Shown here: one piece after another, positions 13,209 to 38,768 of the stretch
Layout of the letters: each line of letters begins with the position of its first letter
Numbering within the stretch: the first letter of the stretch is position 1
Source of the DNA: Candidatus Dormiibacterota bacterium
Lineage (GTDB): Bacteria; Chloroflexota; Dormibacteria; Aeolococcales; Aeolococcaceae
Reading direction: 5' to 3'
Assembly: GCA_041691155.1 (NCBI GenBank)
Contig: JBEPVD010000011.1
Location: forward strand, 636-64,635
DNA length: 64,000 nt
Notes under the pieces: generated by a model
Database searches by the model: none
The model's input: the letters and a program-made list of their open reading frames with translations, nothing else
What the model was told of the DNA's origin: nothing
Translations under genes and position numbers: made by a program

Positions 13209-14150
13209 CTAGTCGCTCCCGAGTGCGACCGTCAACGCCGTGCGCCAGTCGGGGCTGTGCAGGAAGGCTTTGAACGCGCTTGCGGCCGGACTGAGCATGC
13301 GATCCTGCGCCCAGATGACGTGCCACATGCGCTGCACCGGAAAGCCGCGGACCTGCAACGGATGGAGGAGGCCCAGTTGCAGCTCGAGGCGCACGGCATA
13401 CGTCGACAGCACGGTCACGCCAAGGCCGCCCGCGACCGCGCGCTTGAGCGCACCGTTGCTCGCCATCTCCATCGCGGCGCTCGGCTCGACCCCGGCGCCT
13501 CGAAGAATGCGTTCCGCTGCCTCGCGAGTTCCCGAGCCCTGTTCGCGCAGCAGCAATGGACCCGTCAGCAGATCTGCCGGTCGGAGCGGCTCACGGCCGA
13601 CGAGTTCGTGATTCGGCGCGCAGAAGCACATCAGCGAGTTGTCGAGGAACGGCTCCGCAGCGAGCAGGTCGTCGTCCCAGAGCGTCCCGACGACACCGAT
13701 GTCTGCGCCGCCCGTGAGGAGCAGTTCGCGTACCCGGGCGCGGTTGACGACATCCAGGCTGAGCGTGATGCCCGGATGGGCGCGATGGAATCCCGCCATC
13801 GCATCGGGGAGCACGTAGATCCCGACGGTCGTGTCGCCGGCTAGACGAACGTTGCCCGCCTCGAGACCCGCAACATCGTCGATGGCGTCCTGCGCGTCCC
13901 CAACCATTGCCAGGATCCGGCCCGCGCGCTCATGCAGTGCCTGACCGGCCGCGGTCAGCACGGGGGTGCGACTCCCCGGGTCCAGCAGCGGCTGCCCCAC
14001 CGCGCGAGCCAGCGCCTGCATCTGATGGGTGACGGCCGGCTGCGTGAGGGAGAGGAGGCTCGCGGCTCGTGTGAAGCTCCCGAGTTCGACCACACTCGTG
14101 AAGATCCGGAGCTGGCGAAGCGTGATTCGCCGCTCCAGTCGCTGGCTCAT
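13209..14150 (-). CDS. cbbR: LysR-type regulator CbbR
   Basis: TLRQLRIF...SFTRAA...LTQPAVT HTH; REQGSGTR; divergent from prk-cbbLSX. Confidence 0.88.
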   Translation of the reverse strand: MSQRLERRITLRQLRIFTSVVELGSFTRAASLLSLTQPAVTHQMQALARAVGQPLLDPGSRTPVLTAAGQALHERAGRILAMVGDAQDAIDDVAGLEAGNVRLAGDTTVGIYVLPDAMAGFHRAHPGITLSLDVVNRARVRELLLTGGADIGVVGTLWDDDLLAAEPFLDNSLMCFCAPNHELVGREPLRPADLLTGPLLLREQGSGTREAAERILRGAGVEPSAAMEMASNGALKRAVAGGLGVTVLSTYAVRLELQLGLLHPLQVRGFPVQRMWHVIWAQDRMLSPAASAFKAFLHSPDWRTALTVALGSD

Positions 14151-14220
14151 TAGCAAAGCTTATCTCGCCCATGCATACCATGCATTAGACAGCAGCAAGC
14201 CGACCGCCTATCGTCGGGCC
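14150..14220. promoter_or_regulatory. Divergent cbbR/prk promoter region with LysR boxes
   Basis: TTA-N7-TTA at 14150-14162; ATGCAT-ACC-ATGCAT at 14171-14185; TAGACA-N17-TATCGT (14186-14214) ending 6 nt before the prk ATG. Confidence 0.7.
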
Positions 14221-16703
<2,483 letters not shown>

Positions 16704-16714
16704 GGACAGACGAT

Positions 16715-17137
16715 ATGCATGTCACACAGGGAACCTTTTCCTACCTGCCTCCACTCACTGAAACGCAGGTACGCGCCCAGGTGCAATACGCGCTCGACAA
16801 CGGGTGGGCGCTTTCGGTGGAGTTCACCGATGACCCGCACCCCCGCAACTTCCTGTGGGAAATGTGGGGGCTGCCGATGTTCGACGTACGCGATCCGGCG
16901 GCCATCCTGCTCGAGGTCGGTCGCTGCCGCACGGCGTATCCGGCTCGGTACGTCCGCATCAACGCCTATGACCGGACGCTCGGCCGTCAGACCACCGCGT
17001 TGAGCTTCATCGTTCAGCGACCGGTCTCAGAGAAGGGTTTCCGGCTGGAGCGGCAGGAGGGTGCCGATCGCCAGGTGCGCTACGCACTCCACCCCTACGC
17101 GCTCGACCTCCCGCCCGGAGAACGCTACGAGCGCTGA
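16715..17137 (+). CDS. cbbS: RuBisCO small subunit, red-type
   Basis: [39 protein letters not shown] with red-type C-terminal extension. Confidence 0.96.
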
Positions 17138-18157
17138 GTGATGGCACGGGAACCGCACGTTCCGTTCGGCATGCCCCGGCCGTCGACCGGCGGCGTCGCC
17201 ACCGTGGGGGACGGCCTCCCCACTGAAGCGGATAACGTGCCGCCGGAGCCGCCGGCTCTCGGTGGCGACGGTGTCGACCTCGAGGCCGAGGCGCGCGCAT
17301 CCGGCGTTTTCGACGTCATCGCAGAACTGGACCGCGAGCTGGTCGGGCTGGTTCCGGTCAAGACGCGAATTCGAGAGATCGCGGCACTCCTGGTCGTTGA
17401 CTCCGCGCGCCGACGCGCTGGACTGGAGGCGGAGCGCCCCAACCTGCACATGTGCTTCACGGGCAGCCCGGGGACCGGCAAGACCACGGTCGCGCTCCGC
17501 ATGGCCGCGGTGCTGCACAGCCTCGGCTACCTCGCCAAAGGCCATCTGGTCGCCGTGACCCGTGACGAGCTGGTCGGTCAGTACATCGGGCACACGGCGC
17601 CGAAAACGCGCGAGGTCCTCAAACGCGCGATGGGTGGGGTTCTCTTCATCGACGAGGCGTATTACCTCCATCGCCAGGAGAACGAGCGCGACTATGGTCA
17701 GGAGGCAATCGAGATCCTGTTGCAGGTCATGGAGAATCAACGCGCCGATGTGGTCGTCATCCTCGCCGGGTACCGCGACCGCATGGACCAGTTCTTCAAC
17801 AGCAACCCCGGCATGGGATCACGCGTCGCGCACCACATCGACTTCCCCGACTACGACCTCGATGCGTTGACGGCGATCGCGCGCATCATGCTCGATCGTC
17901 AGCGATATGCCTTCTCGCCGGCCGCCGAAGGTGCCTTCCGTGAGCTGCTGACCAGGCGCATGACCCAGCCTCGCTTCGCCAACGCCCGGAGCGTTCGCAA
18001 CGCCCTGGAGCGCGCCCGGTTGCGGCAGGCCAACCGTCTCGTTTCAGACAACGGGCGCCTCGTGACGCGAGACGATCTCATGCGCATCGAGGCCGCTGAC
18101 ATACTCAAGAGCCGCTGGTTCACCGACCCACCGAAGGCCGTTGACGACGCCGGCTGA
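17138..18157 (+). CDS. cbbX: RuBisCO activase CbbX
   Basis: [50 protein letters not shown]. Confidence 0.95.
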
Positions 18158-18168
18158 AGCCGCTGTGC

Positions 18169-18393
18169 TCAGAAGATGACGTGTCGCTTCAAGGACGCGT
18201 CAACGATGCCGGTGGTCATCTGATCGCACCACTGGCACATGAAGCGGATTGCTCGCATCCCGCTCTGCACCCGGCACGCGTTCGGCCAGCCACAACGCCC
18301 ACACATGATCGTCTGGACGTGGACCGCGTCGTTATTCGCCGGTGATGCGTCATCGGGATTCGGGGTGCCGGGCGACACTCCAGGCTCTGGCAT
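18169..18393 (-). CDS. Small putative zinc-ribbon protein
   Basis: 74 aa with CGRC and CQWC pairs; starts 7 nt after the methyltransferase stop. Confidence 0.5.
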   Translation of the reverse strand: MPEPGVSPGTPNPDDASPANNDAVHVQTIMCGRCGWPNACRVQSGMRAIRFMCQWCDQMTTGIVDASLKRHVIF

Positions 18394-18400
18394 CTGCTTG

Positions 18401-19207
18401 CTACGACACCGCTCGCCGCGGCTCGACGTCCGGAACACGAGCGGTGATCCAGCCGAACTCGGATCTGATGCGCCCGCCGATACCGCCTGTGGAGAAGGGC
18501 TCCAGCGCCTCTCGCAGTGCTGCAGTGAAGCGCTCCCGACCGACGTTCTGGAGTGCCGGCCACGACGGCCCGGCGGCGGCGAGCGCCCGGGTCGCGATAT
18601 CCAGATCGGGAAACTCATTGACCACCGGTGCGGTCCCTCGATCCACCCGCTCAAGACCGGCATCGGCGAGCATCTGCTCTGCCACACGCGGGCGGCCCGT
18701 GGACCCTTCATCGGCCAGCGCCGCGATGTGCTCGGTGGGTGAGAACTGTCCGACGGTCGCGAAAGAGGCGAGCAGCCCCATCCGTCTTGGCGAGCCCCAG
18801 AACGTGAGCCCAACCATGCCGCCGGGCCGGACGACGCGACGTGCTTCTCGCAACGCATCTTCACAGCCTTTCGAGATCCCGTTGCAACTGGTCGCGACGT
18901 CAAACCTGTCGTCGGCGTACGGCAACGCGAACATGTCCCCGACATTGAAGTCCCCTGCGGGGGTGCGCGCGCGTGCGATTGCGATGAGCGCCGGCGACGC
19001 GTCCAATCCGGAGACCTCGGCACCGCGTTCTGCGGCGACAGCAGCGGCGTACCCGGACCCGCAGGCGATACCCAGCAGCTGGGTGCCGCCACCGACGCCG
19101 AGGCGGTCGAACAGGAGGTCATTGGCGCGGCGCGCGTACGGCTCGATGAGGTACGCCCAGTCGGCCGCACGCTCACCCCATGCCTGTCCGGATTCTTCCC
19201 AGCTCAC
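18401..19207 (-). CDS. Class I SAM-dependent methyltransferase
   Basis: LLGIACGSG, GLDAS, GDMFALPYADDRFD, RVVRPGG. Confidence 0.85.
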   Translation of the reverse strand: MSWEESGQAWGERAADWAYLIEPYARRANDLLFDRLGVGGGTQLLGIACGSGYAAAVAAERGAEVSGLDASPALIAIARARTPAGDFNVGDMFALPYADDRFDVATSCNGISKGCEDALREARRVVRPGGMVGLTFWGSPRRMGLLASFATVGQFSPTEHIAALADEGSTGRPRVAEQMLADAGLERVDRGTAPVVNEFPDLDIATRALAAAGPSWPALQNVGRERFTAALREALEPFSTGGIGGRIRSEFGWITARVPDVEPRRAVS

Positions 19208-19292
19208 TCGTGAACCCTTGTCTCGAGCACCGTGCGCCCACTTTCGCACGTCTGGCCGAAGATCGCCAGAGGCGCGACCGAGGAAGAGCGAT

Positions 19293-20330
19293 TCACTGCT
19301 TCCGGGCAGTCCACGCGGCCAGGTCGGCCGCGGTCATGGTGTTGATGACACCGTCTGCGAAAGCCCCGCACTCGTCAGCGCGGACGCAGCCGTGCATCTG
19401 CCACTCCAGCTGACCCGGCGCGTGCGCGTCGGTGTCGATTGCGATGCGGCACCTGGCTTCGAGCGCTTGGCGCAACAATCGCCGCGGTGGATCGAGCCGC
19501 TCAGGCCGCGAGTTCACCTCCACCGCGACGTCGTACTCGCGACACGCCGTGAAGACGGCGTCGTGGTCGAAGGTCGACTCCGGCCGTCCCCTTCCGACGA
19601 CGATCCGTCCCGTGCAGTGCCCCAGGACGTCAGTGTTCGGATTGGCGATCGCCCCCAGCATGCGGCGCGTCATCTCCGGCTCGGGCATCCGCAGTTTGGA
19701 GTGGACGCTTGCGACGACCACGTCGAGCGCGGCAAGCAGCTCTGGTGACTGGTCCAGCCCACCGTCTTCGAGGATATCCACCTCGATACCGGTGAGGATG
19801 CGAAAGGGGGCCAACTCGGCGTTGAGCGTGGCGACGACCTCGAGCTGATGGCGCAAGCGTTCCTCGCTGAGCCCGTGAGCGATGGTGAGGCGCGGCGAGT
19901 GATCGGTGAGCACGATGTACTCATGTCCGAACGCTCGCGCTGCCTGCGCCATCTCCTCGATGGGACTGCCGCCGTCGGACCAATCGGAGTGGGTATGACA
20001 GTCACCACGCAGCGCCGCACGCAGCGCGATCGCGGCTTCGGGGACGGCCTTTGCTTCCACTGCCTCGAGACGTACCAGGTACTCGGGGATCAGTCCAGCC
20101 TGCGCCTCGGCGATCACTCCCGCCGTCACCGGTCCGATCCCCGGCAGCGTCTTCAGCGTGCCTGCCCGCACATGCCGATCGAGAACACCCGGGTCGAGAC
20201 CGCGGACAACGGCGGCGGCGTTGCGAAACGCACGCACGCGGTAGGTCGGCTCCGAGTCGCGCTCGAGCAGGAAGGCAATGCGGTCCAGCACACGGGCTGC
20301 TTCCGCCGTTGGCAGCAACCAATCACCCAT
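19293..20330 (-). CDS. PHP-domain protein with PolX-like N-terminal HhH domain
   Basis: YRVRAFRNAA and LPGIGP; HTHSDWSDG, TDHS, DTDAH metal motifs; no polymerase core. Confidence 0.88.
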   Translation of the reverse strand: MGDWLLPTAEAARVLDRIAFLLERDSEPTYRVRAFRNAAAVVRGLDPGVLDRHVRAGTLKTLPGIGPVTAGVIAEAQAGLIPEYLVRLEAVEAKAVPEAAIALRAALRGDCHTHSDWSDGGSPIEEMAQAARAFGHEYIVLTDHSPRLTIAHGLSEERLRHQLEVVATLNAELAPFRILTGIEVDILEDGGLDQSPELLAALDVVVASVHSKLRMPEPEMTRRMLGAIANPNTDVLGHCTGRIVVGRGRPESTFDHDAVFTACREYDVAVEVNSRPERLDPPRRLLRQALEARCRIAIDTDAHAPGQLEWQMHGCVRADECGAFADGVINTMTAADLAAWTARKQ

Positions 20331-20439
20331 GCGTCACCCGGCGCCTCACCGAAACGATGGTGCGCGCTCGCCCATGGCCGGTGTCGAGGCGCGGTGCCGC
20401 TGTCACCGCCGATCCTGAGTGCTTCGTCTGGCCACGCGG

Positions 20440-21585
20440 TTAGCAGATGCGGGGCAGTGGATCTCCGATCAGCATGTCCACGACGCGAGTGCCGCCGAAT
20501 CCGGTGTGGATGAAGACCATTCCCTCCGGCTCGGCGAGCACCTCGCCGATGACCACCGCTTCCGTCCCTTCCGGACGCGAGCGCATCAGATCGACGGCGC
20601 GGGTCGCATCCTGCTTCGCGACGATGGCCACGAGCTTGCCCTCGTTGGCGATGTACAGCGGGTCAATGCCGAGGATCTCCGCCACGCCACGGACCGCGTC
20701 GTGGATTGGTAGCGATGCTTCGTCGATCGCCACAGCCACGCCGGCCGCCTGAGCGATCTCGTTGAGCACGGTCGCAACCCCGCCGCGCGTCGCGTCGCGC
20801 ATGAAGTGGACGTCGACGCCGCTGTCGAGCAGTGCGGCGGTGAGTCCGTTGAGGGGCATCGTGTCGCTCCGCAGCGAGTCGGCTTCGAGATCGACGTCAC
20901 CACGAGCGAGCATGACCGTGGCGCCGTGATCGCCCATGGCGCCGCTCAGGATGACCACGTCACCGGGAACGATTCGCGGGATTGCGATGCGATTGGGGAG
21001 CGCGACCACACCGACGCCCGTGGTCGTGATGAACAGCTGATCGGCCTTGCCGCGAGGGACGACCTTGGTGTCGCCGGTGACGACGCTGACGCCTGCGCGA
21101 TCCGCGGCGCGTCGCATCGACTCGACCACCCTGCGCAGCACAGCCACGTCAAGCCCTTCCTCGAGGATGAACGCCGCGGAAATCCCCATCGGGGTCGCGC
21201 CGCCGACGGCGAGGTCGTTGATCGTGCCGTTGACCGCGAGTTCGCCGATGTCGCCGCCCGGGAAAAAGAGTGGGCTGACGACAAACGAATCGGTGGTCAC
21301 CGCGAGTCCGATGTGGTCCACCCCGGGGATCGCCAGCACTGCCTGATCACCCAGCTGGTCGAGGACGGGATTGCTGAGGATGTCACCGAAGAGCGCGGTG
21401 ACGAGCGTGTGGCTGGCTTTGCCGCCGGCGCCGTGGCTCATCGTGATCGCGTCCTCGCGCATCGACGGCTTGCGCTTCCGAATCTCGGCGATGCGTTCGA
21501 GCACCCGCTGCTCGGGGTCGGCGATGCGCGCGGAGGCCGCCCTGATCGCGGCGCCGCTTCCGGGCTCAACCATCGTGTCGGTCAT
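20440..21585 (-). CDS. hypE: Hydrogenase maturation carbamoyl dehydratase HypE
   Basis: SHGAGG, TDSFVVSPLFFPGGDIG, RDATRGG, ANEGK, C-terminal PRIC. Confidence 0.96.
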   Translation of the reverse strand: MTDTMVEPGSGAAIRAASARIADPEQRVLERIAEIRKRKPSMREDAITMSHGAGGKASHTLVTALFGDILSNPVLDQLGDQAVLAIPGVDHIGLAVTTDSFVVSPLFFPGGDIGELAVNGTINDLAVGGATPMGISAAFILEEGLDVAVLRRVVESMRRAADRAGVSVVTGDTKVVPRGKADQLFITTTGVGVVALPNRIAIPRIVPGDVVILSGAMGDHGATVMLARGDVDLEADSLRSDTMPLNGLTAALLDSGVDVHFMRDATRGGVATVLNEIAQAAGVAVAIDEASLPIHDAVRGVAEILGIDPLYIANEGKLVAIVAKQDATRAVDLMRSRPEGTEAVVIGEVLAEPEGMVFIHTGFGGTRVVDMLIGDPLPRIC

Positions 21586-22790
21586 CGCGCCCGCACCGCA
21601 AGCGGGACGAGGTCGTGCTCGACACCATTGCCGTTGCTGTGACCGTTGCCGTTGGGCCGGTCGCCGGACGCGAGCACTCGCTCGCGCTCGCGGGCGCGCG
21701 AGTACCTGCCAAAGTTGTAGTACGCAGCGCAGGCGCCTTCCGACGAAACCATGCAGGTGCCGATCGGTGTCTCCGGCGTGCAGGCGGTGCCGAACACCTT
21801 GCACTCCCACGGCTTGAGCACCCCTTTGAGCACCTCACCGCACTGACATGCCTTGGGATCGGCGACGCGGACGCCGGGCACGGAAAACACCTTCTCGGCA
21901 TCGAAGTCGGCGTACTCGTCCTGCAGTTCGAGCGCGCTCTGGCTGATGAACCCGAGTCCGCGCCATTCGAAATGCGAACGCAACTTGAAGACGCGCGCCA
22001 GCACTTCGAGCGCCTTGGGATTGCCGTCGTCATGGACGACGCGCCGATACTGGTTCTCGACTTCGCAACGGCCCTCGAGCACTTGCTGAATGATCATGTG
22101 CACGCCCTGCAGGATGTCGAGTGGCTCGAAACCGACGACGACGACCGGCTTGTTGTACGTGCGTGTCACGAACTCGAAGGGTCGAATCCCCACAACCGTC
22201 GACACGTGTCCTGGCCCGAGAAACCCGTCGAGCTGCAGGTCAGGCGAATCGAGGATGGCCTTCATGGGCGGAATGATCGTGACGTGGTTGCAGAAGACGA
22301 AGAGATTGCGCAGCCCTTCCGCCTTGGCTCGCATCAGTGTCAGCGCCGTGGACGGCGCAGTGGTCTCGAACCCGATCGCGTAGAACACGACCTTCCGGTC
22401 CGGATTCTCCTGGGCGATCTTCAAGGCGTCGAGCGGCGAGTACACCATGCGCACATCGGCACCGGCGGCCTTGGCGTCGAGCAGACTGCCCTTGCTGCCG
22501 GGCACGCGCATGAGGTCGCCGAAGCACGTGAAGATCACGCCGGGCTCGTGTGCGACGGCGATCCCGTCGTCAAGCCGTCCCATCGGAATAACGCAGACGG
22601 GACATCCCGGCCCGTGAACGAGCTCCACGTTGCTCGGCAGGAGATCCTCGATGCCGTACTTGAAGATGGTATGCGTGTGGCCGCCACACACCTCCATGAT
22701 CTTCCAGTGCTTGTCGCCGGACTCGGCGGTGATGCGCGCCGCCAGCGCACGCGCCAGGTCGGCGTCCCGGAACTCGTCAGCGAATTTCAT
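21582..22790 (-). CDS. hypD: Hydrogenase maturation protein HypD
   Basis: MEVCGGHTH, GPGCPVC, GFETTAP, PGHVS, CMVSSEGAC. Confidence 0.97.
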   Translation of the reverse strand: MKFADEFRDADLARALAARITAESGDKHWKIMEVCGGHTHTIFKYGIEDLLPSNVELVHGPGCPVCVIPMGRLDDGIAVAHEPGVIFTCFGDLMRVPGSKGSLLDAKAAGADVRMVYSPLDALKIAQENPDRKVVFYAIGFETTAPSTALTLMRAKAEGLRNLFVFCNHVTIIPPMKAILDSPDLQLDGFLGPGHVSTVVGIRPFEFVTRTYNKPVVVVGFEPLDILQGVHMIIQQVLEGRCEVENQYRRVVHDDGNPKALEVLARVFKLRSHFEWRGLGFISQSALELQDEYADFDAEKVFSVPGVRVADPKACQCGEVLKGVLKPWECKVFGTACTPETPIGTCMVSSEGACAAYYNFGRYSRARERERVLASGDRPNGNGHSNGNGVEHDLVPLAVRAR

Positions 22791-23116
22791 GCCGGCGATC
22801 CCCCGTTGCCGTCGCGGTAGTGCGCGCCGACGAGCTCCTCTTCCATCGCCTGCCACTCGCGGATCTGCTCCATCTCATCGGTGTACGCGGGGCCCATCTC
22901 CTCGAGGATCCGCAAGGTCTCGGCAGCTTCGGTCTCACTGACGCGGGACAGTGCAAATCCGACGTGGACGAGCACGTATTCGCCGGGCTCGGTCTTGTCC
23001 TCGCCGACCAGCAGTGAGGTGTTGATCCGGCGCTGCACACCGCCGAGCTCAACCTTGCCGTACATACGCTCCTCGTCGACGTACTCGACGAGTCGGGCGG
23101 GAATCGCTAGGCACAT
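22787..23116 (-). CDS. hypC: Hydrogenase chaperone HypC
   Basis: MCLAIP start; VLVHVGFA. Confidence 0.95.
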   Translation of the reverse strand: MCLAIPARLVEYVDEERMYGKVELGGVQRRINTSLLVGEDKTEPGEYVLVHVGFALSRVSETEAAETLRILEEMGPAYTDEMEQIREWQAMEEELVGAHYRDGNGGSPA

Positions 23117-24640: not shown

Positions 24641-24641
24641 G

Positions 24642-27008: not shown

Positions 27009-27012
27009 GACA

Positions 27013-27207: not shown

Positions 27208-27234
27208 GTGCTTCCACTCCAGATGCCGTTCTTG

Positions 27235-28779: not shown

Positions 28780-29104
28780 CGGTCTCGCCTCCGACGCCGT
28801 TCACTGGTTCGATGTCCTCGAGGCTGAAGAAGAACCGGTGGCCGGGCTGGCGCAACGCCCCGAGATCCTTCCCAGGGTCGTCGTCGACCAGGACTGCGAC
28901 GTGAATGACGTCCTCGTAGTCACGCTCAATCGACTCCACGATAGCGGTGCGCCCGTTGAGGACCATGTCCATGATGTCGGCGCGCCGCCGGGGCCGCATG
29001 CGAACACGATCACCGCGATGCAACTCGCCATCGCCCCAGCGCACCGACTCGGTGGCGGTATCGGCGCCTGCCGGGTCCCAGAGCCCGAGATCGAACTCCT
29101 TCAT
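28772..29104 (-). CDS. Group 1h hydrogenase accessory protein (SH3-like)
   Basis: GDRVRMRPRRRADIMD...DDPGKDL...FFFSLEDIEP; translationally coupled in the operon. Confidence 0.75.
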   Translation of the reverse strand: MKEFDLGLWDPAGADTATESVRWGDGELHRGDRVRMRPRRRADIMDMVLNGRTAIVESIERDYEDVIHVAVLVDDDPGKDLGALRQPGHRFFFSLEDIEPVNGVGGETDG

Positions 29105-30165: not shown

Positions 30166-30824
30166 GCCGGCGGCCCGCTGATCGTCGGTCGATCCTCTGC
30201 GCTCGCGAGCAGGCGAGCCAGCGCCTCATCCCATCCTGGAACACCGGAATGAGCCTTGTAGCGATTGAGCCGGTCGACGGTGTCGCGACGCAGGCAGAGC
30301 CAGGCGCTGTCGGGGTCGTGTTCATCCATCAGCCCCCGCCAGGTGGAGACTGGGAGCCGGAACGCTGCCTCCTTGGACCACGGGATCGGCGCGACCTGCA
30401 GCTCCTCGTCCTCGTCGCGCCAGAAGATCGTGCCGCTGAACTGGAACATCAGTGGCACCTCGCCGTCCTGCAGCGCGAAGAAGTACTTGCCGGCACTGAT
30501 GGTGAGGTCGTGCGTGCACGGCACCGGGACGATCACGTCCGTCGACCCTGTGAAGCCTGAGACGTCGACGCTCGCGTGCGTCCAGAGCATCGTCTTCAGC
30601 GTGGTCCCCCAGCGCCCCGGCGTGCCGAACAGATCGAGCAACGCCTCCTGCTCGCCTGGCGCGTAGGTGCGGCGCGTGGCCTGCACCATGATCTGGCATC
30701 GGAGCGAGATCGAATCGACACGGCGACCTTCCCGCTCACGGATGGCGATGCGGAAGTTGAGAATCGGGATGAGCGTGTCGGGCTCAGCCCCGGCGGACAC
30801 CACTTCGAGATCCAGGTCAGGCAC
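30162..30824 (-). CDS. DUF6084-like hydrogenase accessory protein
   Basis: LRCQI, DLFGTPGRWG, VPCTHD, KYFFAL, FSGTIF, PWSKEA. Confidence 0.8.
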   Translation of the reverse strand: MPDLDLEVVSAGAEPDTLIPILNFRIAIREREGRRVDSISLRCQIMVQATRRTYAPGEQEALLDLFGTPGRWGTTLKTMLWTHASVDVSGFTGSTDVIVPVPCTHDLTISAGKYFFALQDGEVPLMFQFSGTIFWRDEDEELQVAPIPWSKEAAFRLPVSTWRGLMDEHDPDSAWLCLRRDTVDRLNRYKAHSGVPGWDEALARLLASAEDRPTISGPPA

Positions 30825-31446
30825 GGACCGCACCCTTCTCGGTTGCCACGCTGCGCATCTCGGTGAAGAAATCCGCGATGCGGTCCCAGACCTCCTGGCC
30901 ACCACTCAAACCGCGCCAGCTGATGCGGATCAGGCCCACCAACTCGAAGCACTTGTCAATCGGGGCGATGTAATGGTCGCGGGCCCCGCTCACGCGATTG
31001 ACGAGCAACGCCTCGACATCGGGCACCAGACCGGTGAGGATCGGGTTCTCCGCGATGATCTCGCCCCACCCGTCAAGCGTGAGCATCGATTCCGTCGCCC
31101 CGGCGGGACTGGGGTAATACGCGCGCACCGATCCTTCCGGTGATGTCGTGTGCAGGAAGGCCATGTTCACCGGAATGGACAGCCCTTCCCATTGCGCATC
31201 GCTGAATGCGAAACCGGACAGGTACCAGAGGCGGCGCGGGACGCGCCGGTAGCGCTTCTCCGCCTCAGGAGGAAACAGGATCGCGCACGGCGTGCACGTG
31301 CAGTGAATCTGCCGCGCCCCGGGCTCGAAAACGTGCTCGTGATGCGGGTGCGGAGACAGCTCCGCACTGCACAGCTCGCACCGCTCCGCGGGCGCCCGTT
31401 CGCGAATCAGCCCGCGAAGCCCGGAGAGCCGTGCGGCAGTGGTCAT
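30817..31446 (-). CDS. DUF5947-like hydrogenase accessory protein
   Basis: ERCELC, CTCTPCAILF, YPSPAGATES, PIDKCFELVG, WRGLSGG. Confidence 0.8.
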   Translation of the reverse strand: MTTAARLSGLRGLIRERAPAERCELCSAELSPHPHHEHVFEPGARQIHCTCTPCAILFPPEAEKRYRRVPRRLWYLSGFAFSDAQWEGLSIPVNMAFLHTTSPEGSVRAYYPSPAGATESMLTLDGWGEIIAENPILTGLVPDVEALLVNRVSGARDHYIAPIDKCFELVGLIRISWRGLSGGQEVWDRIADFFTEMRSVATEKGAVRA

Positions 31447-32375
31447 GACACCGGCGCCAAAACGGCGACACGGAGTACGCCGCTCTCCTCGAGCAGCGGC
31501 ATCGGCTCGATGCGGTGATCGGTCCCGATGCCGGCACCCGCACGACGGATGTCGTACCGGGTTGCGCACGTGCACACGAGAGCAGCGCCGTCCAGGGTGG
31601 CGCCTTCCATATCACCGGCACACGCCGGGCATGAGGCGACATACGCGTAAAACACATCCCCGGATCGGGCGATGAGCACCCCGCCTCCGTCAACAGTCGT
31701 GCGCAGGACCGTGCCGTTGCGAACGTCCGCCGACCGCGCGGCGAGCGTGACCCATTCGCCTGACGGTGCTGAGACCGGCAGTGGCATCACTTTCGGCGAC
31801 GGTCTCGCGACCATCGGGAGTGCCATCAGCCCCGGCATGCTCGGCGGCCCCGTCGGCGCCGCGTCAACCGGGTCGGCCACCTCGATGGCTACGACGTCGG
31901 GTGCCGCTTCGTAGATCGCCTTCTCCACCGCCAGTTTGAGGGTGACCATCGACGAAGGGCAGCTCTTGCAGTGACCTTCGAGGCGAATGCGCACGACGTC
32001 TCCCAGCACAGCGACGAGCTCCACCCCGCCGCCATGTGAGCGCATGTACGGACGCACCGACTCGAGCGCGCCCTCGACACGGGTGCGGAGATCGATCGGA
32101 TGCAATCCGTGCAGGAGCAACACGCCGCGGATGAGGTCGTCATCAGCCATGGCTCGCAACAAGCGATCCGCGGCCGCATCGCCGCGTGGGCCGAGTGCGT
32201 CGAGCATCCGTGAGAGGGCCTCACCATGCAGGTCGAGGACAGTCGAGAGCAAGTCTTCGACCTTGGCCCGTAACGCAAGGTCGGGGAGCTCTTGCAGCTC
32301 CCCGACCAGGGCGTCAATACGGGCTAGCCGTTTCTGGAGCTCGCGCTCCTCAACGATGCGGGCTCGCGCTGCCAT
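31443..32375 (-). CDS. NifU-domain Fe-S protein with C-terminal Rieske-like domain (HhyE-like)
   Basis: LHGLHP, VRPYMRSHGGGVEL, GHCKSCPSS; C-terminal CPAC and CTC. Confidence 0.82.
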   Translation of the reverse strand: MAARARIVEERELQKRLARIDALVGELQELPDLALRAKVEDLLSTVLDLHGEALSRMLDALGPRGDAAADRLLRAMADDDLIRGVLLLHGLHPIDLRTRVEGALESVRPYMRSHGGGVELVAVLGDVVRIRLEGHCKSCPSSMVTLKLAVEKAIYEAAPDVVAIEVADPVDAAPTGPPSMPGLMALPMVARPSPKVMPLPVSAPSGEWVTLAARSADVRNGTVLRTTVDGGGVLIARSGDVFYAYVASCPACAGDMEGATLDGAALVCTCATRYDIRRAGAGIGTDHRIEPMPLLEESGVLRVAVLAPVS

Positions 32376-34163
32376 TCATGGTTGCGTGCCGAAGTTCGGC
32401 GAGTGCCGAGTCTCCAGCACTTTGCCGTTGCCGAGATACATGTGCACGCCGCATGGCAGACACGGATCAAAGCTGCGCACCGCGCGCATGATGTCGATGC
32501 CCTTGAAGTTGTCAGGCCCGTTCTCTTCAAAGATCGGCGTGTTCTGCACCGAGTCTTCGTACGGTCCCGGCGTTCCGTACATGTCGCGAGGCGTGGCGTT
32601 CCACGGCGTCGGCGGGTACGGATGGTAGTTGGCGATCTTCCCGTCACGAATCACGACGTGGTGGGAGAGCACACCGCGAACCGCTTCATGGAAGCCACAG
32701 CCGATCGCCTCGTCAGGCACGGTGAATGGCGTGAAGGTGTCGGTGCGTCCAGCGTTGAGCTCAGCGAAGGCCTTCTCGATGAAGTGGAGCGCAGCCGCTG
32801 CCGCGTACGCCTGGAAGTACGTCCGGGCCCGGTCGCGCTCGATCGCGTTGCTCCACTTCGGCACGTGCCACTCGAACTCAACCTCGGGCTTCGAGGCGGT
32901 CTTGGGAAGGTAGATCTTGGTGCTGTGACCGGTCGCCTTCACGTAGCCGATGTCGACGACGCCGGCGAGTGAGGTCGCGAGCAGCCGGGCGAAGGCGCCG
33001 CCACCGGTATCCATCGCCAGGTGCTGGCCCTCGTGGAGGTAGCGCGGGCACATCACCCAGCTGTAGTTCTTGTCGAAATCGCGCTTCCCCGGCTTGGGGA
33101 TGGTTGTCTGGTTCCACGGATGCCGCTTGTCGATCGGGAATCCGAGCGGATCCTTCTCGACGAACACTTCACCGTCGTCGACCCAGTCCTCGTAGAACGA
33201 GTGTCCGAGCAGGATTCGGATGTTGCGGTTGATCTCGACCAGGTCAGTGGTGACCAGCTTGCCGTCCACAACGACACCGGGGGTCACGAACATCGACCGT
33301 CCCCAGTTGGTCATGTGACGGTAGGTGTAGTCGCACTCGTCGGGATCGTTGAACGAGCCCCAGCAGACCGTGTCCATACGGCGACGACCGACTTCCTCGT
33401 ACCCCGGAAGAGCCTCGTAGAAGAAGTCGAAGATGTCGTCGTGCAGTGGCACGACCTTCTTCATGAACTCAACGTAGCGCATCAGGCGAACGAGGTAGTC
33501 CGAGAAGAGCTGGACGGTCGGCACGGTGCCGACGCCGCCGGGATACAACGTCGATGGATGGACGTGGCGTCCCTCCATCAGGCAGAACATCTCGCGCGTG
33601 TAGCGGCTGACGTGCAAGGTCTCGCGGTAGAACTCGCCCGTGAACGGGTTGAGCGCCCGCATGATGTCGGCGATCGTCCGATAGCCATGGTCGGCCGCAT
33701 GCGGCGAGGGAGTGTTCTCCGCTTTCGCGAGGACACTCGGGTTGGTCTCTTTCACCATCTGCTCGCAGAAGTCGACCATGAGCAGGTTGTCCTGGAAGAT
33801 GTTGTGGTCGAACATGTACTCGGCGGCCTCGCCGAGGTTGACGATCCACTCCGCCATTGCCGGCGGCCGGATGCCGAACGCCATGTTCTGCGCGTAGGTT
33901 GCGCAGGTCGCGTGGTTGTCACCGCAAATGCCGCAGATGCGGCTGGTGATGAAGTGCGCGTCGCGAGGGTCCTTGCCCTTCATGAAGATGCTGTAGCCAC
34001 GGAAGATCGACGAGGTGCTCCGGCAGTCCGCGACGACGCGGTTCGCGAAGTCGATCTTCGTGAAGATGCCGAGGCTGCCGACGATCCTGGTGATGGGATC
34101 CCAGGAGACGTCAACCAGGGTCGGGTCCTTGGTCCGGGTGGCGTCTTTCTCAACCACAGTCAT
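32376..34163 (-). CDS. hhyL: Group 1h [NiFe]-hydrogenase large subunit
   Basis: L1 ITSRICGICGDNH; L2 SFDPCLPCGVH; WDPITRIVG. Confidence 0.95.
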   Translation of the reverse strand: MTVVEKDATRTKDPTLVDVSWDPITRIVGSLGIFTKIDFANRVVADCRSTSSIFRGYSIFMKGKDPRDAHFITSRICGICGDNHATCATYAQNMAFGIRPPAMAEWIVNLGEAAEYMFDHNIFQDNLLMVDFCEQMVKETNPSVLAKAENTPSPHAADHGYRTIADIMRALNPFTGEFYRETLHVSRYTREMFCLMEGRHVHPSTLYPGGVGTVPTVQLFSDYLVRLMRYVEFMKKVVPLHDDIFDFFYEALPGYEEVGRRRMDTVCWGSFNDPDECDYTYRHMTNWGRSMFVTPGVVVDGKLVTTDLVEINRNIRILLGHSFYEDWVDDGEVFVEKDPLGFPIDKRHPWNQTTIPKPGKRDFDKNYSWVMCPRYLHEGQHLAMDTGGGAFARLLATSLAGVVDIGYVKATGHSTKIYLPKTASKPEVEFEWHVPKWSNAIERDRARTYFQAYAAAAALHFIEKAFAELNAGRTDTFTPFTVPDEAIGCGFHEAVRGVLSHHVVIRDGKIANYHPYPPTPWNATPRDMYGTPGPYEDSVQNTPIFEENGPDNFKGIDIMRAVRSFDPCLPCGVHMYLGNGKVLETRHSPNFGTQP

Positions 34164-34177
34164 GGGTCTGTCTCTCC

Positions 34178-35242
34178 TCAGTACGTGGTCGGCCGGTAGC
34201 CGGTGGTCAGCTCTGGCCGGGTGTGACGCCACTTCGGCTCTTTGTTGACGGTCGTGTTGGTGACCTTGCGCAGCGCACGGATGGCAGTGCCGTAGACACC
34301 GATCACGCCGGTCGAAAGATGCGCGCCGGGCGGCTCGTCCATGAACGGCATGAACTTGTCCGGGAAGCCGGGCATCGTGCAGCCGATGCAGATGCCGCCG
34401 ACGTTTGGACAGCCGCCGATGCCGGCCATCCATCCGCGCTTGGGCACGTTGCAGTTGACGACCGGTCCCCAGCAGCCGAGCTTCACGAGGCAGCGAGGGG
34501 AGTTGTAGTCCGCGGCGAAATCGCCCTGCTCGTAGGACGCGGCACGGTCACACCCGTCGTGGACCGTGTCCCCGAAGAGCCACGTGGGACGCAACTGGTC
34601 ATCCAGCGGGATCACCGGCGCGAGTCCGGCGACCATGTAGAGCAGATAGAGCACCGTCTCCATGAAGTTGTCGGGTTGCACAGGGCAGCCCGGTACGTTG
34701 ACGATCGGAAGGCCCGCCTTCGACTTCCAGTCCCAGCCGAGGTAGTCGGCCAGGCCCATAGCGCCGGTGGGGTTCCCCTGCATCGCATGGATGCCGCCGT
34801 ACGTCGCGCAAGTGCCGCAGGCGACGACAGCGAGCGCCTTGGGCGCGAGGCGGTCGATCCATTCGCAGGTGGTGATCGGTTGCCCGGTCGCCGCGTCCGT
34901 GCCGACGGCGGCCCAGTAACCTTCCTTCTTGATGGTTTCGTTCGGAATCGAGCCTTCGATGACGAGCACGAAGGGATCCAGCTCGCCGTTCGCGGCCGCG
35001 TGCCAGGACTTGATGAACTCCTCGCCGTTCTCATACGCGAGGACGGGGTTGTACAGATGCACTTTGGGGAGGCCCGGTATCGCACCGAGCAGCACATCCT
35101 CGATGCTGGGCTGCGTGGCTGCGGTGATCGACACCGAGTCACCGTCGCAGCCGAGTCCGGCGGTCACCCACACGATGTGGACATCCGGGACGGGCGACTC
35201 CCGCTGGGTTTTCCGCCCGTAGGGCACCGTGTCTGTGGCCAT
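34178..35242 (-). CDS. hhyS: Group 1h [NiFe]-hydrogenase small subunit
   Basis: GLGCDGDS (Cys/Asp proximal ligands), GCPVQP, HDGCDR, CIGCTMPGFPD; no Tat signal. Confidence 0.95.
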   Translation of the reverse strand: MATDTVPYGRKTQRESPVPDVHIVWVTAGLGCDGDSVSITAATQPSIEDVLLGAIPGLPKVHLYNPVLAYENGEEFIKSWHAAANGELDPFVLVIEGSIPNETIKKEGYWAAVGTDAATGQPITTCEWIDRLAPKALAVVACGTCATYGGIHAMQGNPTGAMGLADYLGWDWKSKAGLPIVNVPGCPVQPDNFMETVLYLLYMVAGLAPVIPLDDQLRPTWLFGDTVHDGCDRAASYEQGDFAADYNSPRCLVKLGCWGPVVNCNVPKRGWMAGIGGCPNVGGICIGCTMPGFPDKFMPFMDEPPGAHLSTGVIGVYGTAIRALRKVTNTTVNKEPKWRHTRPELTTGYRPTTY

Positions 35243-35383: not shown

Positions 35384-35384
35384 T

Positions 35385-35843
35385 TTACAGCGAGGTGGTG
35401 TTGCGGGTGCTCAACGCAAGATGGTCGTGCTGCTGCGCGGCCTTCGACTCCTGCTTGCCACTCGGCGATGCGGAGTGCACGCTCGAGGACCCCGGGGTTC
35501 GCCTGCGCATCTTCAGGAACTCCTGCGCGACATGCAGGAGTTGCTCGACCGGAGCGACATAGGCGTCGACCATGTCCATGCCCGATTCGCTCAATTCGTA
35601 GCGACGGCGACTGCGACCGCCCGTCGTCCGCTCCCAGGTTGAACGCAAGAGTCCCTCGCTCTCCATGGTGTTCAAAGCCCGGTAGACCGTTCCGAGATCG
35701 CACTCCACGCCGACGCCAAGCAGCCAGTGATGCAGCTCGTAGCCGTAGACCGTGTCTCCGCCGACGAGATGCGCGAGGACGCACGGGCGCAGCATGCCAA
35801 CTGACATTGCCCCTGGTCCAACCGGCCGGCCGTCCCCGCTCAA
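35385..35843 (-). CDS. PadR-family transcriptional regulator
   Basis: LRPCVL, YGYEL, GTVYRALNTMESEGLL, RRRYELSESG; true start may be downstream (MSVG or MLRP). Confidence 0.85.
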   Translation of the reverse strand: MSGDGRPVGPGAMSVGMLRPCVLAHLVGGDTVYGYELHHWLLGVGVECDLGTVYRALNTMESEGLLRSTWERTTGGRSRRRYELSESGMDMVDAYVAPVEQLLHVAQEFLKMRRRTPGSSSVHSASPSGKQESKAAQQHDHLALSTRNTTSL

Positions 35844-35905
35844 TGCCTTACCTCGAATCCGCCAACTGGTGTGCTCACTGTACGGCGGCGAACCAACCTT
35901 TTACC

Positions 35906-35922
35906 CTAGGGTCGGACCCTAG
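35906..35922. promoter_or_regulatory. Palindrome CTAGGGTC-G-GACCCTAG, candidate LuxR-type operator
   Basis: Perfect 8-bp inverted repeat at the end of the LuxR gene, upstream of padR. Confidence 0.55.
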
Positions 35923-38768
35923 TCTTTTGCGACCAGGACACCCTTGGTTGCGCTGCTGCTCGTATGAGCCTGTCGCACCGGAGCAATTGGCCCAAACGTT
36001 GGTACCAGTTCTTGACGCGAACGGATGCCGAGCTTTCCGTACACATTCGCCAGGTGGTACTCCACCGTCTTGATGCTGACCACCAGTTCGTCCGCGACTT
36101 GACGATTGGTGCGACCCGTCGCCACGAGGCGGGCGACCGAGACTTCCTGCGGCGTCAGCCGCCAGCGTGCCGATTGACCGCCGTCGGCGCTGAGCGCGAG
36201 ACCGCACTGCGCGAGCAGCCGGGCGCAGTCGGCGATGAAGGGCCGCGCCTCCAGGTCGACGAAGCGCTCGTGGGCAGCCTCCAGCTGCCACATCGCGGAA
36301 CGGTTGTGGCCCTCACGAAGGAGGTGCCGACCATACTCGAGCTCGGTCAATCCTCGCTCGAACGGCAGCTGAATGTCGTCAAGGATGGCGAGGCTGGAGA
36401 CGAATGACACCTCGGCGTCGTCAGTCCGACCGAGTGCCGCGTCGATGGCGCCACGCACCCGTTCTGCGGCCGCCACCGATTGCGCTCGGTTCCGCTCACG
36501 TGCAAGCCGCGTGAACTGGCCCAGCACGGTTTCGGCATCGCGAAGCCTGCTCGTGCCGACGAGAGCGGATGCGTACAGGATCGGCCAGTCCAGGATCCCG
36601 GGCTCGCGGATGCCGTCGAGGTCGGCGAGCGGCAGCAATGGCTCCAGCGCATGGATCACCTGTTCGTGATCGCCGCGCGCGCGCGCCACCAGCGCGGAAG
36701 CCATCGCAGCCTGGGCCACCCCGGCGAACTCCGCTCTGACGATCTCGGCGGCGCGGCGCGCCGCGGCCGCGTGTGCGCCGGCTGCGTCCCAGTCACCTCG
36801 GCCGGCGAGCGGTGCCGCCGCTGCGGCGTGCGCTCGGGCGAGCAGCCAGGTCTGGTCGGCATCCTCCGCGAGGGACGCGGCGAGTTGACCGTGCACCGAG
36901 GCGTCGTCCCATGCGCCCATGCGGTACTCCGCGATCGACAGCGCCGTGAGCGCCTCGACCGCGTGTCGCGCCGGGCCTCGACGCCGGTATTGATCGGCAA
37001 TCGGCGCGAGGTCGTCGCGCGCGCCGACCGGATCATCGGTCACACAGCGCACGTACCCACGGCCGATGAAGCCGTCGAGTGACTCCGACTCGTCGATCGA
37101 GCTCGCATCCCCGAGCGCGACAACCGCTGCCGCTGCTTCCGGCGCTCGCCCGGCGAAGAGCAGCCCGGTCGCAAGCACCGAGAGTGAGTCGGAAACTGGC
37201 GACGGCGGTCGCTTGGCGTCAAGCGAGCGTGTGGCCCATAACGCGGCGTCAGCGCCGTGGCCGCGGCCCATGTGGACGTGAGCAAGCTGCGCGGCGATCT
37301 CCTCCGCCAGCGGGTGGTCGCGGACGCGGTCGCAGGCTTCGTACGCGATGCTGAGCAACTCCTGCGCTCTGTCGTATCGGCCGGCAACCATTGCGAGACT
37401 ACCCAGCACGAAGCCGCGCCGAGCCGTCGGCGGCTGCAGCTCGATCTCGTCGACCAGCGCTGTCGCATCATCCACGGCACCGCCCAGGAGCATGTATTCC
37501 GCAGCCATGAGCAGCCGCAGGTCGCGCTCCGGGCTGTCCACTGTGAGGCGGCTGGCGGACAGCAGCGCGTCGGCGGCGGCGTCCCATCCCCCACGACGCG
37601 CGATCTGCATACCGAAGATCAGGAGGTCTGCCGCGAGTTGCGGATCCGCGCCGTGCGCGGCGGCCACTCGATGGTGGAGTGCTGCGGCCTCGTCGCTGAC
37701 CATCCCGGCGGCGCGCTCGTGAAGTTCAGCGCGGCGTGCAGGGCCGATCGTGTGGTACGCGGCCGCCTGGATCAGCGGGTGCGGGAATGCGATGTCGCGA
37801 TCCGCTGGAGCGCCTCGCTCCAGCAGGAGACGGGCGGCCATCGCGCGCTCCAGCGGCACCAGCGTCTCTGCGAGGTCGGCGAGCTTGCCGGCCTGTGCGA
37901 GCCTGCAGCTCAGGCCGAACACCGACGCCGCCGTGACCAGCCGTTGCGCCTCCGGTGAACAGGCCTCGAGGCGCGCCCGCACCAGCGCGCTGAAGTCGGC
38001 GGTGGACGGCAAAGGCAGATCCGACGGCTCGCGGAGGATCTCGGGAACGATCTCGTCGAAGATGGCCGTGGCATGCAGTGGGCTGCCACCTGTATGAGCC
38101 CGGATGCGGTCCGCCGCACGGGATGAGAGGTGGTCGATGCCCATCGTCGTGCCGAGATCACGTATCGACGCCGCGTCGAGCCCTCGAACACGGACCCATC
38201 CGCCATGACTGTGTTCGACCAGGCGGTGGAATCCGGCCAGGTGGCCGCGGGTCGAACCGCTGCGCGACACCATGAGGGTGAGGACACGATCCGCCTGGAG
38301 CCGCCGCAACGCGAATAGCAACGCTTGCAGGGACGGCCGGTCGGCCCATTGCGCATCGTCGATGAGCAGGAGAACGGGGCCGCCCGACGTCTGCATCGAC
38401 CCGAGCAACTCGAGCAGCGCCGCGCCCACCCATATCGGGTCGCGAGACTCGCCACCGGCGCTGCCGAGGCCTGCGAGAGCGGGAGCATCGGTCGAGGGCC
38501 CTGTGCGCACGAGTTGCTCCACGACGCCGAAGGTGAGGAGTTGCTCAGCTTCCTCACCACTGGCTTCCCAGACCTGAAAGCCGTGCAACTGGCTGACGAA
38601 ACGGTGCGCGAGCGCCGTCTTGCCGATTCCCGGTTCGCCGGTGAGCAGCACGATGCGCGGGTGACCCGCCCGGACCTGCTCCGCCTCGGCGAGTAGGCTG
38701 CTCAGTTCACTCCCCCGGCCGACGAAAGCCGTTGCGACTGGACCGGGCTCGCCGATTCGTGCCGTCAT
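35919..38768 (-). CDS. Large ATP-binding LuxR-family (LAL) regulator
   Basis: FVGRGSEL, GEPGIGKT, IDDAQWAD, helical repeats, C-terminal HTH LTPQE...TVEYHLANVYGKLG. Confidence 0.9.
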   Translation of the reverse strand: MTARIGEPGPVATAFVGRGSELSSLLAEAEQVRAGHPRIVLLTGEPGIGKTALAHRFVSQLHGFQVWEASGEEAEQLLTFGVVEQLVRTGPSTDAPALAGLGSAGGESRDPIWVGAALLELLGSMQTSGGPVLLLIDDAQWADRPSLQALLFALRRLQADRVLTLMVSRSGSTRGHLAGFHRLVEHSHGGWVRVRGLDAASIRDLGTTMGIDHLSSRAADRIRAHTGGSPLHATAIFDEIVPEILREPSDLPLPSTADFSALVRARLEACSPEAQRLVTAASVFGLSCRLAQAGKLADLAETLVPLERAMAARLLLERGAPADRDIAFPHPLIQAAAYHTIGPARRAELHERAAGMVSDEAAALHHRVAAAHGADPQLAADLLIFGMQIARRGGWDAAADALLSASRLTVDSPERDLRLLMAAEYMLLGGAVDDATALVDEIELQPPTARRGFVLGSLAMVAGRYDRAQELLSIAYEACDRVRDHPLAEEIAAQLAHVHMGRGHGADAALWATRSLDAKRPPSPVSDSLSVLATGLLFAGRAPEAAAAVVALGDASSIDESESLDGFIGRGYVRCVTDDPVGARDDLAPIADQYRRRGPARHAVEALTALSIAEYRMGAWDDASVHGQLAASLAEDADQTWLLARAHAAAAAPLAGRGDWDAAGAHAAAARRAAEIVRAEFAGVAQAAMASALVARARGDHEQVIHALEPLLPLADLDGIREPGILDWPILYASALVGTSRLRDAETVLGQFTRLARERNRAQSVAAAERVRGAIDAALGRTDDAEVSFVSSLAILDDIQLPFERGLTELEYGRHLLREGHNRSAMWQLEAAHERFVDLEARPFIADCARLLAQCGLALSADGGQSARWRLTPQEVSVARLVATGRTNRQVADELVVSIKTVEYHLANVYGKLGIRSRQELVPTFGPIAPVRQAHTSSSATKGVLVAKD

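Follow-up and report, generated by a model that had tools for sequence, protein, structure and literature searches.

The question raised by this locus is whether a RuBisCO unit and a hydrogenase cluster that lie end to end on one contig form a single inherited module, or are two units that stand together and can be parted. The locus lies in a stretch of 64,000 nucleotides from a Candidatus Dormiibacterota bacterium (GenBank assembly GCA_041691155.1, contig JBEPVD010000011.1, positions 636 to 64,635 of the forward strand), hereafter the window; coordinates are window positions. A preliminary description had marked 13209-38768 as a form IE-like RuBisCO unit converging on a group 1h [NiFe]-hydrogenase operon. 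The region is probably a chromosomal "aerotrophy" region, in which two autonomous and separable units stand tail-to-tail, their linkage is conserved in the genus, and oxidation of trace H2 supports the Calvin cycle (Calvin-Benson-Bassham, CBB). Gene identities, architecture, conservation and the breakpoints of insertions and deletions were read directly from the genomes. This metabolism had been established in the phylum before; what is added, modestly, is the conserved adjacency, the natural deletion variants and the recurrence of the linkage.

Layout of the region

The host draft genome is 3.07 Mb in 84 contigs and is 89% complete, with one RuBisCO and one [NiFe]-hydrogenase; among named records, its closest are Candidatus Dormibacterota MAGs (metagenome-assembled genomes). 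Probable genes were chosen by bias in GC content at third codon positions and then scanned against Pfam and NCBIfam. The start codons of prk, hhyL, and hhyS were set from the sequence and from alignments. The carbon-fixation unit, with cbbR divergent from prk-cbbL-cbbS-cbbX, occupies 13209-18157, and a convergent minus-strand array stands opposite. Between the cbbX stop codon (18155-18157) and the stop codon of the array there are 11 bp.

Read in its own direction, the array begins with padR, a LuxR/AAA_16 regulator, hhyS, hhyL, the NifU-like, DUF5947 and DUF6084 genes, and two open reading frames (ORFs) of 354 and 110 aa. These are followed by an endopeptidase gene, hypA, yceI, a 64-aa ORF, hypF, a SIS gene, a hypC-like gene, a second SIS gene, hypC, hypD, and hypE. 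After hypE come a PHP-domain gene, an S-adenosylmethionine (SAM) methyltransferase gene and a 74-aa zinc-ribbon ORF. Most adjoining genes of the locus overlap by 4 nt or are spaced by a few bases, and cbbL is 15.7 kb from hhyL/hhyS. In the Pfam and NCBIfam scans, cbbX and hypE ended at 18157 and 20440, as the preliminary description had it, and exactly the three small genes it had counted lay between them, all on the minus strand (18169-18393, 18401-19249, and 19293-20330). Its right end, 38768, falls within the LuxR/AAA_16 ORF (35919-38954), probably near the true start of that ORF. The terminator scan gave no match in the 11-bp gap and a single one at 18017-18036, within shuffled expectation; the Rfam scan of 11000-41000 matched no family.

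Linkage in the assembly and in the genus

Atmospheric chemosynthesis is mostly deduced from marker genes that occur together in MAGs, for which mis-binning is a lasting concern. The 117 genomes of the family were searched with CbbL and HhyL; the tallies include G004, G005, G014, and G060, and no conclusion depends on these four. Among the 41 genus-mates of the window, 17 had both genes, seven CbbL only, nine HhyL only, and eight neither. Of the 17 genomes with both, 15, the single-contig genomes G100 and G101 included, had them convergent on a single contig at a distance of 13.7-14.4 kb. In G111 the apparent split is a contig break, and its two contig ends fit the same layout; in G095, cbbL and hhyL are on separate contigs.

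That the adjacency is an artefact of assembly or binning, which joined a RuBisCO contig to a hydrogenase contig, is extremely improbable. The genome is a MAG of 84 contigs, the uvrD|cbbR junction was found in the window alone, and the Logan contigs break within cbbL itself, where related strains raise the depth. Against this, contigs of the Logan re-assembly of run X1, which is a freshwater sediment metagenome and probably the source sample, span 12500-15866 and 17660-21500 with 0 differences and an even depth of approximately 11-12. Runs X2 and X3 contained small shares of the window only, as short divergent contigs, and the search of sequencing runs listed no RNA run with the stretch. The cbbX|zinc-ribbon junction is common to genus-mates, the cbbX|zinc-ribbon|hypE adjacency occurs in 15 other genomes, G100 and G101 among them, and the PHP-hypE junction is shared with G103. 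An assembly join unseen in relatives, against which the preliminary description had asked to be checked, is thus contradicted by the 15 linked genus-mates and by the X1 re-assembly across the junctions. The linkage of cbb and hhy is genuine and genus-wide. Since the adjacency is found throughout the genus on single contigs, closed genomes included, both units belong to the same organism.

Separability of the two units

Genus-mates carry natural variants of the locus. In G103, the genome closest to the window by its flanks (approximately 85% identity; HhyL 99%), exactly 13204-18168, from cbbR to cbbX, is missing, and synteny with the window runs from EamA to uvrD and again from the zinc-ribbon ORF onward. 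In G110, cbbR (79% identity) and the zinc-ribbon ORF are present, and 834 bp take the place of prk-cbbX. In G076, the cbb unit is followed by the genes of methylaspartate ammonia-lyase (MAAL) and isochorismatase, without hyp or hhy genes. G085 carries cbb and the stretch from hypE to yceI and is without hypA through hhyS; G096, G104, and G116 have hypE and the zinc-ribbon ORF without cbb nearby. Variants of one locus with both units, hhy only, cbb only, or cbbR left behind form a comparative set for the contribution of each unit in the field.

In the window, the cbb unit is bounded by intergenic junctions without repeats, one of 5 bp between the stop codons of uvrD and cbbR, the other of 11 bp. 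No tRNA, flanking repeats or GC anomaly was found in the window, and no integrase or transposase family among the ORFs scanned; the lack of integrase and flanking repeats given in the preliminary description held in those ORFs and in the repeat search. None of the marks of a genomic island (integrase or transposase, tRNA target, direct repeats, deviant composition) was present.

Linkage is mostly absent outside the genus. In the sister genera, the two genes are 432 kb apart in G019 and on different contigs in G017 and G032 (assemblies of 8-9 contigs); the other out-of-genus family genomes with both genes were too fragmented for a distance. Four genomes of other families had both, 40 kb apart in one (G316) and on different contigs in three. 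A broad survey at the phylum level (401 genomes, 23 with CbbL) said little on linkage. Since the units are convergent, have separate regulators, are removed singly by clean deletions and are mostly unlinked in sister genera, the block is not one unit of inheritance. Each of the two units, cbb and hhy, has its own regulation and its own pattern of loss and retention, and the region is no mobile island.

The opposite view, that the block of approximately 25 kb is one co-inherited and possibly transferable energy-plus-carbon module held by selection for co-transfer or co-regulation, is rather doubtful. It draws on the tight linkage having arisen in at least five layouts (genus g1, G054, three Solirubrobacterales MAGs, and a Mycobacterium plasmid) and on a survey of 78 out-of-genus CbbL loci, 45 of them with full 10-kb flanks on both sides: hyp genes were within 10 kb in four, where a rough chance estimate is approximately 1%, and a distant hydrogenase was seen in one. 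The remaining 73 had no hydrogenase genes nearby. According to PMC13554262, moreover, transfer of aerotrophy genes is over two times as frequent as that of other genes, and in G101 and G108 the whole block is on the other side of the MAAL-isochorismatase-104-aa ORF trio relative to the window. Against this view stand the missing signs of mobility, the distances outside the genus, the regulators that each unit has of its own and the single clade formed by the Dormibacterota CbbL sequences (support 91). Of the co-inherited module that had been proposed for this DNA, the physical linkage therefore stands, genuine and conserved in 15 of 17 genus-mates; the co-inheritance does not, or only in part, given the convergent units with separate regulators, the clean deletions, the 16 of 41 genus-mates with one unit only, and the 432 kb in G019.

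In the tree of hypED, the window fell outside the B subclade (87/94); G103 was left out because of its partial cover. In the cbbLSX tree, the window grouped with G111 and G092 (83/90) on a branch two to three times longer. Both trees are too weakly resolved to tell whether, within the genus, the cbb unit descended vertically or was transferred.

The MAAL-isochorismatase-104-aa trio lies beyond the LAL-type regulator in G101 and G108 (L107 and L109), and on the cbbR side in the window (8657-10982) and in G103. One of the two, the trio or the cbb-hyp-hhy block as a whole, has switched sides within the genus.

The carbon-fixation unit and the form of its RuBisCO

The cbbL gene (15240-16703, plus strand) encodes a red-type form I RuBisCO large subunit with matches to Pfam RuBisCO_large and RuBisCO_large_N and 747 bits against NF003252 (cut-off 438). 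It is followed by cbbS (16715-17137, plus strand; Pfam RuBisCO_small, E 2.8e-37), the large and small subunit genes standing in consecutive ORFs as in form I (L8S8) enzymes, and by cbbX for the red-type RuBisCO activase (17138-18157, plus strand; TIGR02880, 482.6 bits against a cut-off of 459.25). Upstream of cbbL, prk (14221-15243, plus strand) encodes a phosphoribulokinase of 340 aa (Pfam PRK; NF005655, 336 bits against a cut-off of 236).

The best solved matches of CbbL, 25hn, 1bxn, 5nv3, and 1bwv, scored 779-801 bits and the next structures at most approximately 670 bits; we take the former to be red-type and the latter green-type. Solved form ID enzymes score near form IC for this protein (779 vs 785 bits). 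Among its best 80 genome loci, two genus-mates were 92% identical and the remainder 73-81% (Actinomycetota, Eremiobacterota, Acidobacteriota, and Chloroflexota). The nearest named relatives belong to Actinomycetota, Eremiobacterota, and Acidobacteriota (76-81% identity), and identity to named plasmid-borne form IC anchors was 70-74.5%.

A CbbL tree of 95 rows was built by quick IQ-TREE with one green-type outgroup on a long branch; form ID and the proposed form IG had no rows in it. The seven IC rows formed a clade (Shimodaira-Hasegawa-like approximate likelihood ratio test, SH-aLRT, 100) with the window CbbL outside. The ten Dormibacterota rows formed the clade mentioned above, the genus clade within it had a support of 99, and they were set among sequences of Actinomycetota, Acidobacteriota, and Eremiobacterota. 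Ca. Dormibacterota is counted among eight form IE phyla in PMC9561532, and form IE is restricted to Actinomycetota, with a form IG proposed, in PMC13374853. The window RuBisCO is of the red type, and "IE-like" is a fair label for it, judged by its sequence.

The cbbR-like LysR regulator (13209-14150, or 14156; minus strand) is divergent from prk, matches Pfam HTH_1 and LysR_substrate, scores 185.7 bits against the NCBIfam CbbR equivalog (cut-off 450) and is 79-84% identical to genus-mates. The 70-bp control region between cbbR and prk (14151-14220) contains a dyad of the T-N11-A type and hexamers resembling -35 and -10 boxes, with a promoter-like site at 14186-14214 upstream of prk. The CATGCAT element and two promoter-like hexamers of this spacer are kept in seven relatives.

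The phosphoribulokinase of the genus is only 35-44% identical to those beside most other IE-type cbbL genes, the sister genera G019 and G054 included. The phosphoribulokinases of two MAGs come nearer, at 71% identity (L006, another Dormibacterota genome) and 67% (L026, Acidimicrobiales), and the comparison suggests that the prk of this genus is of a replaced type. In the genus-mate G113, CbbL matched in two frames (residues 1-200 and 199-487; G113:C6:858294-859753), as in a frameshifted gene or an assembly error.

The group 1h hydrogenase

The large subunit HhyL (595 aa; hhyL, 32376-34163, minus strand) scored 1099.8 bits to 5AA5_C, the Cupriavidus necator "actinobacterial-type" enzyme, and at most 157 bits to any other solved [NiFe]-hydrogenase (113 bits to Huc, group 2a). 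Against each of the 13 plasmid-borne relatives compared, all 1h large subunits, its identity is 72-80%, HofG of pHG1 (79.8%) included. Both of its four-Cys segments (L1 and L2) match 5AA5 exactly in the alignment; we take these motifs to be a group 1h signature.

The small subunit gene hhyS (34178-35242, minus strand) lies 14 bp from hhyL, and its product scored 650.5 bits to 5AA5_A. The group 1h assignment of the preliminary description was borne out by both subunits. The alignment of HhyS begins at residue 1 of 5AA5_A, which is Met-36 of the ORF; there is no RR in the N-terminus, and hence no twin-arginine translocation (Tat) leader. The GLGCDGDS segment is identical to that of 5AA5_A and presumably carries the Cys-to-Asp pattern of its proximal-cluster ligands. 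According to PMC9561532, adjoining small and large subunit genes are typical of group 1h, unlike 1l.

A PadR regulator and the large LuxR/AAA_16 (LAL-type) regulator (together 35385-38954, minus strand; Pfam) are directly upstream of hhyS, as they are in the four genus-mates checked (G101, G100, G108, and G096). The family member G032 (8 contigs) has three full-length HhyL copies, of 84% identity, on two contigs.

Predicted physiology

Expression, H2 affinity, the routing of electrons and any H2 dependence of CO2 fixation are predicted here from gene families. CbbR would activate prk-cbbLSX; phosphoribulokinase would make ribulose bisphosphate, which the red-type (IE-like) L8S8 RuBisCO would carboxylate, and CbbX would remodel and reactivate inhibited RuBisCO. 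The Tat-less 1h enzyme, predicted to face the cytoplasm, would oxidise trace H2 and pass the electrons to the aerobic respiratory chain. ATP, with reductant supplied by other dehydrogenases or through reverse electron flow, would then drive the CBB cycle. The rest of the CBB enzymes would be encoded elsewhere in the genome, where a GlpX-type fructose-1,6-bisphosphatase/sedoheptulose-1,7-bisphosphatase and Rpe scored above their cut-offs; the large subunit CoxL of a CO dehydrogenase of form I (1221 bits; cut-off 991) is likewise on another contig.

Several points weigh against this reading of the region. The transketolase model was matched below its cut-off only (164 and 73 bits in one 652-aa ORF). 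Electrons from a 1h hydrogenase enter a chain of high potential, and so these genes leave the NAD(P)H supply of the CBB cycle unexplained. Position and family are the whole basis for calling the LysR regulator CbbR, its score being below the equivalog cut-off. Without a canonical HypB and without the zinc site of HypA, maturation of the hydrogenase and insertion of nickel may be unusual. The independent recurrence of the linkage in other lineages argues that the adjacency may be selected and not merely inherited. With the single green-type outgroup, "IE" sequences were paraphyletic to IC, and Dormibacterota and IC forced into one clade were not rejected by the approximately unbiased (AU) test (log-likelihood difference 28.8, p 0.08). 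Of the form IE-like RuBisCO first described for this DNA, what holds is a red-type enzyme with CbbX, outside the IC clade and among sequences that the literature calls IE; its separation from IC is less firm, a sister relation being left by the AU test.

The two units could also be functionally unrelated neighbours, the 1h hydrogenase giving energy for persistence only, as in heterotrophs that have no RuBisCO, and the cbb unit being powered by CO oxidation or organic substrates or acting as a redox sink. We regard this as unlikely. Nine genus-mates have hhy without cbb and seven have cbb without a detected hhyL, no regulator or transcript is shared, a form I CoxL is encoded on another contig of the genome, and the 13 plasmid-borne 1h genes are in heterotrophs of the Streptomyces type and others. 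Yet an HhyL match was found in 33 of the 45 CbbL-positive genomes of the family vs 15 of the 71 CbbL-negative ones, relatives which are not independent of each other, and the linkage recurs independently in G054, Solirubrobacterales, and a Mycobacterium plasmid. H2-stimulated assimilation of 14CO2 in soils rich in these taxa is also recorded in PMC9561532. Support of the CBB cycle by trace-H2 oxidation, with the two units otherwise autonomous, remains the reading that we prefer.

Recurrence of the linkage and known systems

In G054, of the sister genus g11, cbbLSX, yceI, prk, and hhySL are co-directional within 7.8 kb, prk adjoining hhyS. Three of the four out-of-genus loci with hyp genes nearby are Solirubrobacterales MAGs (L015, L069, and L072) with three different layouts. 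Like the window, they have IE-type cbbLSX, with a 1h-like HhyL (63-66% identity) 11.7-14.2 kb off; L069 is convergent like the window, whereas the other two are co-directional. They differ in belonging to another phylum and in their prk, which is downstream of cbbX and 36-37% identical.

The hydrogenase half of the region has a close counterpart in the 1h cluster of pHG1 of Cupriavidus necator H16 (HhyL 79.8% and HhyS 76.9% identity). The two have in common the order S-L-NifU-DUF5947-DUF6084-hypothetical-protease-hypF-hypC-SIS-hypD-hypE. A cbb operon is on the same replicon in pHG1 as well, but it is of form IC and approximately 63 kb from hofG. Furthermore, pHG1 is a conjugative megaplasmid with integrases beside the 1h cluster, whereas the window region is chromosomal and integrase-free. 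The pHG1 cluster ends in hypA-hypB; in the window, HypB is missing, HypA is without the Zn site, and the gene for the 476-aa hypothetical protein is split. The yceI, PHP, methyltransferase and Zn-ribbon genes are extra in the window.

A plasmid of Mycobacterium intracellulare subsp. chimaera AH16 (NZ_CP012886.2) resembles the window in its layout, with a hyp/hydrogenase array facing a convergent cbbL-cbbS-cbbX; its CbbL has 78% identity to that of the window, and approximately 14 kb separate cbbL from the gene of the catalytic subunit. Unlike in the window, the adjoining hydrogenase is Huc-type, of group 2a (1072 bits to 7UUS; 24% identity to HhyL), the plasmid is mobilizable, a 1h copy is 52 kb away, and cbb forms a cluster with tkt, rpe, fba, and prk. 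This plasmid (437 kb; L095, 308594-350009) also carries a nickel transporter in addition to the IE-type cbbLSX, the CBB genes, the Huc-type cluster and the 1h hydrogenase. The pHCG3 plasmid of Afipia (Oligotropha) carboxidovorans differs from the window in its form IC cbbL (71.7% identity), in being conjugative and in belonging to a proteobacterium; its clustering of cox, cbb, and hox on one replicon is, we assume, a precedent for grouped chemolithoautotrophy genes.

Ji et al. reportedly described in 2017 the genes for atmospheric chemosynthesis in Ca. Dormibacterota, Eremiobacterota, and Actinomycetota; Ca. Dormibacterota is the phylum for which the RuBisCO-hydrogenase gene pair was first connected with this metabolism. 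For the same three groups, the consulted sections of PMC9561532 give a form IE-type RuBisCO, a group 1h hydrogenase and a form I CO dehydrogenase per genome, as in the host of the window. What they report is co-occurrence per genome, to which the genus of the window adds physical adjacency, at 13.7-15.7 kb. Full-text literature searches found no report of physical cbb-hhy linkage in Dormibacterota; supplements were not covered by these searches, so a mention could exist.

The return of the linkage in unrelated lineages, and on a plasmid, is relevant to how the trait spreads; with the biology of this phylum already established, the gain is incremental. One might tentatively suppose that selection for joint transfer or retention has repeatedly drawn IE-type cbb operons and high-affinity hydrogenase clusters (1h/2a) into blocks of approximately 12-25 kb, the Dormibacterota block being one such cassette, chromosomal and integrase-free; we hold this to be the less probable course.

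Accessory, maturation, and small genes

The DUF6084, DUF5947, and NifU-like accessory genes (30162-32375, minus strand; Pfam) are in the same order as on pHG1. They are followed by the two ORFs of 110 and 354 aa (28772-30165, minus strand), which correspond to the C- and N-terminal parts, respectively, of a single 476-aa hypothetical protein of the pHG1 1h cluster (tblastn identity 62% and 47%). The two overlap by 4 nt, and neither matched a Pfam family. With the hydrogenase maturation endopeptidase (28261-28779, minus strand; TIGR00072, 120.6 bits), all five 1h accessory genes (NifU, DUF5947, DUF6084, hypothetical, and protease) match pHG1 in the same order. The region homologous to the 476-aa gene also aligns, split, in the genus-mate G101.

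The HypA variant (27899-28264, minus strand) matches Pfam HypA over profile positions 1-70 of 112 only. The N-terminal MHE is kept, the CxxC...CxxC zinc module is gone, and the tail is His-rich. Zn-less HypA with a His-rich tail is common to four genus-mates, and HypA of G054 has both the zinc module and the tail. HypC, HypD, HypE, and HypF were above their cut-offs, and the canonical HypABCDEF set is incomplete; canonical HypB was over the cut-off in none of the genus's 42 genomes, some of them closed.

The genes concerned are all on the minus strand: hypF at 24642-27110 (TIGR00143, 774.6 bits), hypC at 22787-23116 (TIGR00074, 72.6 bits), hypD at 21582-22856 (TIGR00075, 515.9 bits), and hypE at 20440-21585, with its stop at 20440 (TIGR02124, 414 bits). 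A SIS-domain protein, a second HypC-like protein and a second protein with a SIS_2 domain (23107-24802, minus strand; Pfam) are encoded between hypF and hypC. SIS and HypC genes are present in the pHG1 and Mycobacterium hydrogenase clusters too. The YceI-like protein (27235-27747; Pfam YceI) and the 64-aa ORF, which matched no Pfam family, occupy 27013-27747 on the minus strand. Proteins of the YceI family bind polyisoprenoid lipids. The yceI gene stands between hypF and hypA, is 71-83% identical in genus-mates, adjoins prk-hhyS in G054 and is absent from the pHG1 cluster.

Two genes downstream of hypE are lineage-specific. The PHP-domain protein of the PRK07945 type (19293-20330, minus strand; NF005928, 519.6 bits) is common only to the window and G103 among the loci examined. 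A 22-nt inverted repeat between the P-loop coding region of prk and the hypE-PHP spacer was taken as chance; it has no extension and is absent from G103. The class I SAM methyltransferase (18401-19249, minus strand; Pfam Methyltransf_11/25) is absent from G103, by an 811-bp indel that retains the 5' end, and from genomes of the G101 type, relative to which both genes (18318-20438) are extra in the window.

The last gene of the array is the 74-aa ORF (18169-18393, minus strand), recognised from its translation as a CxxC-x18-CxxC zinc ribbon and matching no Pfam family. It is kept in ten relatives, cbb-less genomes included, with its C-terminal approximately 50 residues strongly conserved. The same ORF ends the hyp array in all genus-mates examined, and in G054 it adjoins cbbR.

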